From positions 672,001-736,000 of the forward strand of contig CAWJYV010000008.1 in the NCBI GenBank assembly GCA_963847185.1: DNA of 64,000 nt. The letters are read 5' to 3'. Position numbers and translations under genes: made by a program. The DNA is from an uncultured Methanosarcinaceae archaeon. GTDB lineage: Archaea > Halobacteriota > Methanosarcinia > Methanosarcinales > Methanosarcinaceae. Positions 25,913 through 26,529 of this stretch are shown in pieces; the stretch's first letter is position 1; the number at the start of each line of letters is the position of its first letter. A model generated the notes under the pieces. The model saw only the letters and a list, made by a program, of their open reading frames with translations. It did no database searches and was not told the DNA's origin.

Positions 25913-26529
25913 ATTAGTGAACAAGATCCACTAAAACAAGGATTGAAACAATAGTATGGTAACGTATATAGCCCAGGAAAATGAAGTACAAGATAGTTAA
26001 AAAATTGTAGAAGGTGCGAAAGTGGGGGAACCCCAAGATAAGAGAAAGAAACCCGAGCGCGAAGAACCACGTTATGACAGATTTTACGCAGAAGACGGAA
26101 GCATGGAAATAAGCAAGGCGGGCCCCTTGACCGATGAGGACAGGGCGGAATTAGCGGCCATGCTTAATCTGTTAGGCGTACCAGGCGAGGGCAAGGAAGG
26201 CCAGGCAAGCAAGGAAGCTAAGAAGGGGAAAAAGGGACGGTGAGAATATCGAAGCGGACCTTAAGGCAGGGACCCTAAAACGCGGCCTTAATCAGCCTGT
26301 CTTTTTTCATCTAATTATTACGACCGGAAAGGCCGGTCTATTTCCCTTATGAGATGGGGGCGGCTTTTTTCAAAACGGTCCTACGTATCATAAAACAGGA
26401 AAAAATTAAAGATGTTTTCATCTACTGTGTGGACCGGCATAAAATTCGCGAGCAAGATCCCTATAACAAGGATTGAAACCGAGTAAAGTCAGAATACAAA
26501 ATAAAGCGAGAAAGAAATCATGAGGCAAG
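25913..26529 (+). CRISPR. Orphan CRISPR-like mini-array: R1, 494-bp spacer, R2, 36-bp spacer, truncated R3
   Basis: R1 25913-25949 ATTAGTGAACAAGATCCACTAAAACAAGGATTGAAAC; R2 26444-26479 ATTCGCGAGCAAGATCCCTATAACAAGGATTGAAAC; degenerate R3 AATCATGAGGCAAG from 26516. R1 and R2 end in the ATTGAAAC handle and match the 37-nt Methanosarcina repeat type as I recall it. Confidence 0.82.
26022..26243 (+). CDS. 73-aa hypothetical protein lying between the CRISPR repeats
   Basis: GTG start 5 nt after GAAGGTG; TATATA at 25965-25970; GC-rich; charged protein with a basic tail. Confidence 0.6.
   Translation: MGEPQDKRKKPEREEPRYDRFYAEDGSMEISKAGPLTDEDRAELAAMLNLLGVPGEGKEGQASKEAKKGKKGR

Follow-up and report, generated by a model that had tools for sequence, protein, structure and literature searches.

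The stretch analyzed here (the window) comprises 64,000 nucleotides of an uncultured Methanosarcinaceae archaeon (assembly GCA_963847185.1, contig CAWJYV010000008.1, positions 672,001 to 736,000). Between an alkD-like DNA alkylation repair gene and a cupin gene it carries two repeats, R1 and R2, of the CRISPR kind (short palindromic repeats, clustered and regularly interspaced), and between these, in the position of a spacer, a 494-bp cassette with a small gene, ORF73 (Table 1). In the common view, a CRISPR array stores short, noncoding spacers, and long inserts in it are usually dismissed as transposons or errors. The family of ORF73 was nevertheless found in spacer slots of related genomes as well, in the direction of the CRISPR RNA (crRNA), and the slot of the window holds different genes in different strains.

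Both repeats aligned with Rfam family RF01320, for which the gathering score is 37 bits, across the full length of the model, and thus represent direct repeats of a curated CRISPR family (DR7). R1 reads ATTAGTGAAC...ATTGAAAC (37 nt), with three substitutions within its first 9 nt and a 3' part of 24 nt equal to the consensus, and R2 has a consensus 5' half with one A deleted and one A changed to T in the middle of the repeat. A preliminary description, made from the letters of this DNA, had two near-identical repeats bracketing 494 bp (25950-26443). The bracketing was borne out by the sequence and by the two Rfam matches; the repeats are indeed alike but, with four substitutions and a 1-nt deletion between them and only the final 15 nt identical, not nearly identical. 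The junctions of the insert lie at complete repeats (...ATTGAAAC followed directly by AATAG and, at the other end, ...CATAAA followed directly by ATTCGCG). The 494-nt spacing of R1 and R2 falls outside the regular 30- to 45-nt spacing of CRISPR arrays. Repeat searches and Rfam revealed no further repeat match between R1 and R2, and hence no eroded repeat-spacer units in the 494 bp; over positions 25000-27500, only R1 and R2 scored above the Rfam threshold. The sequence from 26485 onward is 94% identical to the nearest relative (G052:C262), and positions 26516-26529 resemble, over 14 nt only, the onset of the degenerate repeat (ATTATGAGCAAGACCC...) that precedes the cupin gene in G022. The tract 5' of R1, described earlier as AT-rich and leader-like, is AT-rich (GC content of 0.22 to 0.35 at 25440-25920), but a leader was not identified in it.

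Table 1. Features of the CRISPR remnant and its borders (window coordinates)
Feature	Position	Strand	Evidence or remark
alkD-like DNA alkylation repair gene, left border	24306-25028	+	Pfam PF08713, E 2.5e-67
R1, CRISPR repeat, 37 nt	25913-25949	+	Rfam RF01320 CRISPR-DR7, 51.7 bits, E 4e-9
Gene cassette in spacer slot, 494 bp	25950-26443	+	Single-copy in genome
TATA box TATATAG, putative cassette promoter	25965-25971	+	TATATAGCCCAGG here versus TATAAATAGCCAGG 5' of the L024 homologue
Ribosome-binding site GAAGGTG	26010-26016	+	5 nt 5' of the GTG start
ORF73, GTG start, 73 codons	26022-26243	+	List of open reading frames, alignments, profile matches
Oligo-T tracts (T6 at 26302-26307 and 26365-26370) and GC hairpin (26322-26338)	26302-26370	+	Sequence
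Second conserved cassette element	26307-26384	+	tblastx, 42% identity over 26 codons, versus G035:C3
R2, CRISPR repeat, 36 nt	26444-26479	+	Rfam RF01320 CRISPR-DR7, 41.6 bits, E 2e-6
36-nt stretch in spacer position	26480-26515	+	Covered by empty-site contig X1
Possible, very degenerate terminal repeat AATCATGAGGCAAG	26516-26529	+	Short, diverged
Cupin gene, right border	26594-26992	-	Pfam PF07883, E 2.5e-15

The cassette has the signals of a self-contained gene. Homologues of ORF73 carry GGAGG or GAGGA at a matching distance before the start codon, and the copy in G054 is preceded by a similar TATA-like box (CTATAAATAG). Judged from their sequence, the oligo-T tracts and the hairpin are likely archaeal terminators of the cassette transcript. 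The GC content reaches 0.53 to 0.575 at 26040-26279 versus 0.40 for the contig, and no terminal inverted repeats were found at the cassette ends; the earlier picture of a GC-rich insert with a TATA box, ribosome-binding site, open reading frame (ORF), and terminator-like stems, and without terminal inverted repeats, therefore holds from the sequence. At the DNA level, the search for a source of the cassette yielded no match in 58 genomes of the same genus, in phages, or in plasmids. The 494 bp are a gene cassette, neither eroded repeat-spacer units nor the ordinary chromosomal DNA of these relatives.

The nearest free-standing relatives of the cassette are short genes in G035:C3 and in two metagenome contigs. 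In G035:C3, an element matching 26307-26384 follows the homologous gene at a distance of about 120 nt, so that this match and the ORF match keep their order, and the cassette is colinear at the protein level with this repeat-free copy. The free-standing relatives share both the promoter (TATAAATAGCCAGG where the window has TATATAGCCCAGG) and the downstream piece (window 26307-26384), so that the cassette of the window has the look of a small transcription unit taken over entire from a setting of this kind. The stop codon of the homologue in this G035:C3 locus contains the start of a (TTGA)n microsatellite with about 17 units (L024:9590-9660, minus strand).

Three other identities were considered for the insert and rejected. 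A mobile element with copies elsewhere does not agree with the single-copy state of the cassette, of which the genome holds no further copies. A structured RNA is not indicated by the folding of the 494 nt compared with shuffled sequences (z of -1.22 and +0.53 for the two strands). An insertion sequence or miniature inverted-repeat transposable element was dismissed since the ends lack inverted repeats, the ORF has no Pfam match, and the junctions show no half-spacers.

The vanished type I-B locus

Homologues of the alkD-like gene adjoin a type I-B locus in G003 and G013, and homologues of the cupin gene flank the CRISPR-Cas locus of relatives. The interval between the two genes in G003, positionally homologous to that of the window, holds a CARF-HTH regulator, Cas8b, Cas7, Cas5, Cas3, Cas6b, Cas1, and Cas4, followed by about 120 repeats and then by further short arrays. 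In G013 the interval spans about 15 kb with few repeats, only a weak partial Cas3-like match, and no Cas6b; in G022 and G057 only one repeat and about 1 kb are left; and in G040 the alkD-like and cupin genes have nothing between them. Comparison of this interval across relatives, as the preliminary description had proposed, thus brought to light both a full I-B array (G003) and, in a metagenome contig treated below (X1), an empty site.

The genome to which the window belongs (G000; 10 contigs, 99.8% complete) lacks the cognate cas genes. A tblastn search of all of G000 with Cas8b, Cas7, Cas5, Cas3, Cas6b, Cas1, and Cas4 of G003 gave one weak, partial Cas1-like match on another contig, and searches with the Pfam models of Cas6 (PF01881), DevR (PF01905), RAMP (PF03787), and Cas6b_C (PF17262) gave none, so no recognizable Cas6, Cas6b, Cas7, or RAMP gene was found in G000. 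Matches to Cas1 (PF01867) were confined to partial or broken pieces. The absence of cas genes, originally noted for the window, hence extends to the whole genome for type I-B, and the description of the locus as an orphan CRISPR remnant of a repeat type served by Cas6b is supported by this and by the DR7 matches. Since relatives have a complete I-B system in the alkD-cupin interval and G000 has none, the mini-array of the window is a relic of a deleted type I-B CRISPR-Cas locus.

The Cas1-like fragments of G000 lie at C10:424195-424659, C4:16751-16951, and C6:17640-17750. One is an open frame of 241 amino acids that matches only the C-terminal half of the Pfam model, and the other two contain stop codons; from their sequence, they could be remnants of casposons or of CRISPR loci.

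The ORF73 family and its recurrence in spacer slots

ORF73 belongs to a narrow family of small proteins, found only in Methanosarcinaceae, whose members are real genes. With tblastn, weak relatives were detected in 8 other genomes of 2 genera, and the family alignment (A1; 11 sequences) has 6 invariant columns and the core motif RF..G..F..A.PLTEEDR.E. The profile of this family matched 29 of the 177 genomes of the taxonomic family, often in several copies. A collection of 5.8 billion proteins contained 52 family matches, named, where named at all, "hypothetical protein" of Methanosarcina or Methanosarcinaceae, and among 1.84 billion representatives only 45 family proteins were present, all small and without names there. 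The family has no Pfam or PHROG match; a sequence profile search of the PDB gave nothing usable (best E, 0.65), and the best score in the ESM Atlas (0.81) remained below the level of a lead. Viral relatives were not found among 224 candidate stretches in IMG/VR or, by tblastn, in the phage collection. AlphaFold2, run on an alignment of 59 sequences, gave ORF73 a mean predicted local distance difference test score of 67.1 and one confident helix (residues 38 to 51); the protein is predicted to be acidic and mostly disordered, with a single amphipathic helix.

A longer form of the family occurs in at least 7 species in a conserved chromosomal setting, between genes for a DEAD-box helicase and a GNAT acetyltransferase. 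One family copy (G017:C5) shares an 11.7-kb contig with genes for a DNA methylase, a PrimPol, and a tyrosine integrase, and another resides in an island with HNH, PIN, and HTH genes. Some copies have in-frame stops (TAG in five, TAA in three, and TGA in one; the copies listed are G041:C16, G035:C36, G036:C1, G014:C114, and G035:C14), and the in-frame TAG codons, in a genus that uses pyrrolysine, could stand for read-through rather than decay. About 4 kb from a long-form member in G009, a 427-amino-acid RRXRR and HNH protein of IscB-like architecture is encoded (L027:14313-15596).

Family members recur in spacer slots. In G041, G179, and G180, a homologue is likewise flanked by the DR7 repeat at long spacing. 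The clearest case is G014:C91, in which a regular array of well over 100 repeats begins 122 nt downstream of cas4 and adjoins a cas7-cas5-cas3-cas6b-cas1-cas2-cas4 operon. Its leader-distal "spacers" of 264, 311, and 482 nt contain one family ORF each, with start codons 19 to 42 nt after the upstream repeat and a ribosome-binding site before each; a 483-nt slot of G014 contains a different orphan gene (87 amino acids) with its own TATA box and ribosome-binding site. Overall, 42 loci yielded 44 distinct copies after exclusion of duplicates and of pieces shorter than 35 amino acids; of these copies, 14 had a co-oriented DR7 repeat within 700 nt, none had only an oppositely oriented one, and 30 had none. 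All 14 array-adjacent copies point in the crRNA direction. The array-borne arrangement was seen in 9 genomes (8 besides G000), of which 5 lack Cas6b.

In 13 of 15 long spacers (700 nt or less) from 19 loci, the crRNA-sense strand carried the longest ORF. As a control, a 70-amino-acid orphan family, present in the G041 cassettes and in 30 of 177 genomes, had repeats at only 2 of 25 loci, one of them oppositely oriented. In a maximum-likelihood tree of 42 rows, which has 81 columns and many unresolved forks, the array label changed 4 times (bootstrap range, 4 to 5), at least 2 changes being forced by well-supported branches, and none of 500 shuffles gave a number as low as 4. With about 4 changes, array residence arose or was lost several times. 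Cas6b_C was present in 17 of the 29 family-positive genomes, versus 54 of all 177 genomes and 31 of the 58 from the genus, and no phyletic link between the family and Cas6b was evident in the 177 genomes.

Other orphan small genes (70 to 182 amino acids) also occupy long spacer slots in sense orientation (L061:5771-6034; L021:9552-9764 and 10453-10665; L084:5225-5491; L089:643-1191 and 1816-2184), with no Pfam match among those scanned. A slot gene of 100 amino acids at L089:4029-4331 has a weak match to a prokaryotic RING/zinc-finger domain.

Slot contents and the repeats as probable recombination boundaries

Public contigs were compared with the window over 25500-27000, the runs containing no more than 0.18 of the sampled words. 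In a soil metagenome (X1), a contig of 2834 nt joins position 25934 to position 26465 and skips 530 bp, which correspond to the cassette and one repeat. Its flanks are about 98% identical to those of the window (7 differences in 168 nt and 9 in 536 nt), with 15 ambiguous letters at the joint, and the empty-site allele retains the R1 form of the repeat. Other strains have other contents at this place. In the nearest species (G052; flanks 91 to 96% identical), the slot is occupied by amtB-glnB, encoding an ammonium transporter and PII, on the opposite strand between degenerate repeats (L077:975-2923, G052:C262). In G022, it is occupied by a cassette of about 590 bp with an ORF for a small membrane protein, between a repeat and a degenerate repeat, and in G054 by another subfamily of the ORF73 family with its own CTATAAATAG box, after a repeat, a spacer, and a degenerate repeat. 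Elsewhere in its genome, G178 has a degenerate repeat, a cassette, and a truncated repeat. An empty-site allele together with different genes in the same slot indicates that the repeats behave as recombination boundaries of exchangeable cassettes.

Two mechanisms had been proposed in the preliminary description, namely, integration of an oversized fragment at the leader end with duplication of the repeat, and repeats that act as RNA-processing or recombination sites for a cargo gene. The role as recombination sites fits the empty site in X1, the variable slot contents of G052, G022, and G054, and the recurrence in arrays. The private mutations of R1 and R2, given flanks that differ from X1 by only about 2%, speak against a recent duplication by Cas1-Cas2, and no leader was identified at which such an integration would have taken place. 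RNA processing at R1 and R2 is excluded for the strain itself, as it has no detectable Cas6 or Cas6b gene. From the sequences compared, recombination in the 3' part common to both repeats explains the present state better than a fresh Cas1-Cas2 duplication does; it could have been the insertion of a repeat-bearing donor or a deletion in X1.

The explanation that we favor, with a probability of roughly two-thirds (0.68), is that the window contains a relic I-B locus in a lineage in which small-gene cassettes recurrently occupy spacer slots and the repeats serve as recombination boundaries. According to this explanation, the cas genes and nearly the whole array would have been lost, with two repeats and a self-contained cassette in spacer position remaining. 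Genes of the ORF73 family and a few other orphan small genes would occupy DR7 spacer slots, bounded by full repeats and oriented like the crRNA, and a cassette and one repeat would be gained or lost as a unit, leading to different cassettes in one slot of different strains. In G000 the repeats would be inert, and the gene would be expressed, if at all, from its own promoter. In cas-bearing relatives, minimal cassettes, which with 19 to 42 nt upstream have no room for a promoter, would have to be transcribed within the pre-crRNA, and cutting by Cas6b 8 nt before the end of the repeat would then free discrete mRNAs tagged with the repeat handle. The cassette protein would bind a partner in a conflict between mobile element and host.

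Several observations weigh against this explanation. Thirty of the 44 genome copies and all three metagenome loci have no nearby repeat, and because a conserved chromosomal context surrounds at least 7 repeat-free copies, an association with arrays is not obligatory for the family. Kinship inflates the counts, since the copies of genus g6 are orthologous and two G014 copies are duplicates, and the small, partly unresolved tree mentioned above bears on the number of independent events. The ratio of nonsynonymous to synonymous substitution rates was 0.31 to 0.38 among array-borne copies (four pairs computed), values that rest on 5 to 11 synonymous changes per pair. Contigs of two RNA runs cover only part of the cupin gene. 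The X1 allele could have arisen by mere deletion between the 3' 15 nt that R1 and R2 have in common and need not be a sign of two-way mobility, and no enzyme for cassette movement was identified. None of 421 unique spacers from the examined arrays had a nonarray match in the examined loci, the window, or G000, and nothing thus suggests that CRISPR targets the source elements.

A bolder extension of the favored explanation would see the Methanosarcinaceae I-B array as an integron-like platform, on which small genes, those of the ORF73 family foremost, are captured in spacer slots in sense, transcribed from the leader, excised by Cas6b as mRNAs with an 8-nt handle, and moved by repeat recombination or by Cas1-Cas2. 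We offer this only tentatively and regard it as rather doubtful. Integron cassette arrays are alike in having small, mostly orphan genes, co-oriented between recombination sites, with presence/absence polymorphism and a strain-dependent slot content, and in that some cassettes lack a promoter of their own and depend on one upstream. They differ in that here CRISPR repeats form the boundaries and ordinary spacers lie among the cassettes. Among the genes scanned beside the arrays (the cas genes of G003 and, in G014, genes matching the G003 Cas proteins by tblastn), neither an IntI-type integrase nor attI was seen, in a scan that did not include a dedicated search for IntI; the only integrase seen is that on the unrelated 11.7-kb contig. 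If the platform existed, the cassette proteins would be protein-level additions to, or parasites of, an RNA-guided immune memory, and orphans of the window type would be remnants after loss of the cas genes.

The interest of the arrangement lies in one protein family that is repeatedly found in spacer slots, sense-oriented and under purifying selection, and also in arrays that have intact cas operons. Should the favored explanation be true, arrays would also carry and express genes, with CRISPR repeats as cassette boundaries, and small accessory genes in archaea would have a new route of movement and expression. Cas6-processed mRNAs would then have a natural example, and the conflict between methanogen CRISPR and mobile elements a candidate protein participant. 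Array finders that reject long spacers would split or miss such arrays, and gene callers would miss the small genes. The copy in the window is an inert relic, which tempers its own direct interest, yet it exposes a recurrent arrangement open to direct test in Methanosarcina, a genus with reported tools for CRISPR-based genome editing. Both gene cassettes in spacer positions and the ORF73 family are apparently undescribed, none having been found in the literature, supplements excluded.

Competing explanations and related systems

The window shares with the type I-B array of Methanosarcina (DR7, Cas6b) the 37-nt repeat type ending in ATTGAAAC, the locus, and exact junctions; it differs in that its "spacer" is a complete gene of 494 bp, that there are two, perhaps three, repeats, and that the genome has no cas genes. 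A rival explanation is an oversized spacer, in which Cas1-Cas2(-Cas4) once integrated a mobile-element fragment of about 0.5 kb and duplicated the repeat, a course that may have been the initial capture, although we think it unlikely, and that is compatible with later spread by repeat recombination. Inserts always start directly after ...ATTGAAAC and end directly before ATTCG..., and spacer integration is, to our knowledge, the only process that makes exact repeat-spacer junctions; at the window, too, the insert is bounded exactly by complete repeats. The ORF is GC-rich relative to the host, related copies are found on the contig with integrase, PrimPol, and methylase genes (G017:C5) and in the HNH/PIN/HTH island, AATAG follows the repeat in the G014 cassettes c1 and c3 as in the window cassette, and several cassettes cluster at 482 to 493 nt.

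The adaptation machinery, however, measures spacer length, and the insert has 494 nt rather than some tens. We found no report in the literature of spacers of hundreds of base pairs made by this machinery. The flanking repeats are not copies of each other, and their private mutations (4 substitutions and 1 deletion against about 2% difference of the X1 flanks) mean that the duplication was not recent, an old event being still possible. Adaptation alone predicts neither the sense orientation of 14 of 14 copies nor the capture of one family in 2 to 4 lineages at least. A source protospacer or protospacer-adjacent motif was not identifiable, and a DNA source was lacking in IMG/VR as in the 58 genus genomes, phages, and plasmids.

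Transposons have mostly been held responsible for long spacers in bacterial arrays (Kupczok et al. 2015, PMC4524480). The insert of the window resembles these in being a long stretch between two repeats but has no transposase, terminal inverted repeats, or half-spacers, and a nontransposase gene family recurs in the position.

Quite unlikely, in our judgment, is a module of the acr-racr type, in which an anti-CRISPR (acr) gene of a mobile element, next to a solitary repeat, was pulled into arrays via repeat homology. An enrichment of acr genes at distances of up to 1 kb from viral solitary repeats has been reported, including one gene 11 nt upstream of the repeat (Camara-Wilpert et al. 2023, PMC10651486). 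Like the modules of that study, the cassette has a small ORF of unknown fold upstream of a co-oriented repeat, immediately so in the modules and with 200 nt between stop codon and R2 in the window; the distance is 28 to 47 nt in genus g6 (G175 and G180) and in G027. By this analogy, an anti-CRISPR role of the cassette protein is suggested, and Cas6b is absent from 5 of the 9 genomes with array-borne copies. Seven IMG/VR contigs (L118 to L124) carry a DR7 repeat, 4 of them only its 3' 24 nt; among the contigs scanned for phage hallmarks, which included L118 but not L123 of the two mini-array contigs, a terminase is encoded on L118, and Mu-F and ERF on 2 of the 4 partial-repeat contigs.

The modules described there are, on the other hand, borne by phages or prophages and have one repeat, whereas the gene of the window lies between two, family copies occupy chromosomal arrays or relics, and no viral copy was found. 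The window itself is not a mobile element with a solitary repeat but a chromosomal relic between housekeeping-type genes. None of the 30 repeat-free copies, that on the integrative element included, has a solitary repeat beside it, and the family is missing from the 224 IMG/VR candidate stretches and from the phage collection. Cas6b is not rarer in family-positive genomes (17 of 29) than across the genus. G014, moreover, has about 58 regular units between the leader and the first long spacer; if units are added at the leader end, acquisition continued after the cassette had arrived, which is hard to square with self-inhibition.

On two of the contigs L118 to L124, predicted to be viral, Methanosarcina-type repeats form a two-repeat mini-array, which in L118 adjoins the large terminase gene. 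Among the partial-repeat contigs, one has its 24-nt repeat directly after the ERF recombinase gene, with a DUF488 gene following 28 nt later, and another of the seven contigs has a full repeat at its end. These repeats are candidate solitary repeat units or recombination sites. Virus-borne mini-CRISPR arrays have normal-sized spacers against competing viruses (Medvedeva et al. 2019, PMC6858448); the array of the window is similarly very short and detached from cas genes but is chromosomal and bears a gene.

Chance juxtaposition, in which R1 ends one decayed array, R2 opens the next, and the 494 bp are leader DNA between arrays that happens to contain a gene, seems very improbable. It would agree with genus g6, in which the ORF has a terminal degenerate repeat on one side and, on the other, a leader-like stretch that recurs directly upstream of other arrays, and with the several arrays and solitary repeats that relatives have in the alkD-cupin interval. 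However, the window cassette is unlike any stretch upstream of arrays in the examined loci, the G014 cassettes are part of a single regular array, flanked on either side by perfect repeats and with only 19 to 42 nt from repeat to start codon, and the X1 allele drops exactly the cassette and one repeat.

We give hardly any credence to a regulatory mini-array of the CreTA/CreR type, whose crRNA-like RNA would enable Cascade to repress the promoter of a toxin or of cas genes. Two repeat-like sequences off a normal array would suit it, and such mini-arrays are common in I-B loci; their inserts are, however, spacer-sized, and they lie in or by cas operons (10.1101/2023.03.03.530964), whereas the insert of the window has 494 bp, away from any cas operon and in a genome without Cascade genes. 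An assembly artefact that joined unrelated repeat-bearing reads is scarcely conceivable: misassembly typically occurs at repeats, and the genome is split into 10 contigs, but a 151-nt contig of run X2 (which may be the source sample) is identical to 26117-26267, the same architecture is present in 8 other genomes, and both flanks are syntenic with relatives.

G000 has four good DR7 copies, namely, R1, R2, and two solitary full-length repeats on another contig (C4, minus strand; L005:10274-10310 and L005:14876-14912), which are co-oriented and 4.6 kb apart. Ahead of one of these are a degenerate repeat and a gap of spacer size, and a tRNA-like sequence is close to it. Between the two are genes of ordinary appearance, namely, pRiA4 ORF3-like, TPR, and pentapeptide genes and an Oxidored_q6 fragment, with an N-ATPase operon adjacent. 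In the window, short intergenic tandem repeats lie on both sides of the locus: a 16-nt unit (TTAAG.TG.CT.TAAA) in about 4 copies at 27276-27338 and a 25-nt unit in 2 copies at 25099-25148, directly after the alkD-like gene.

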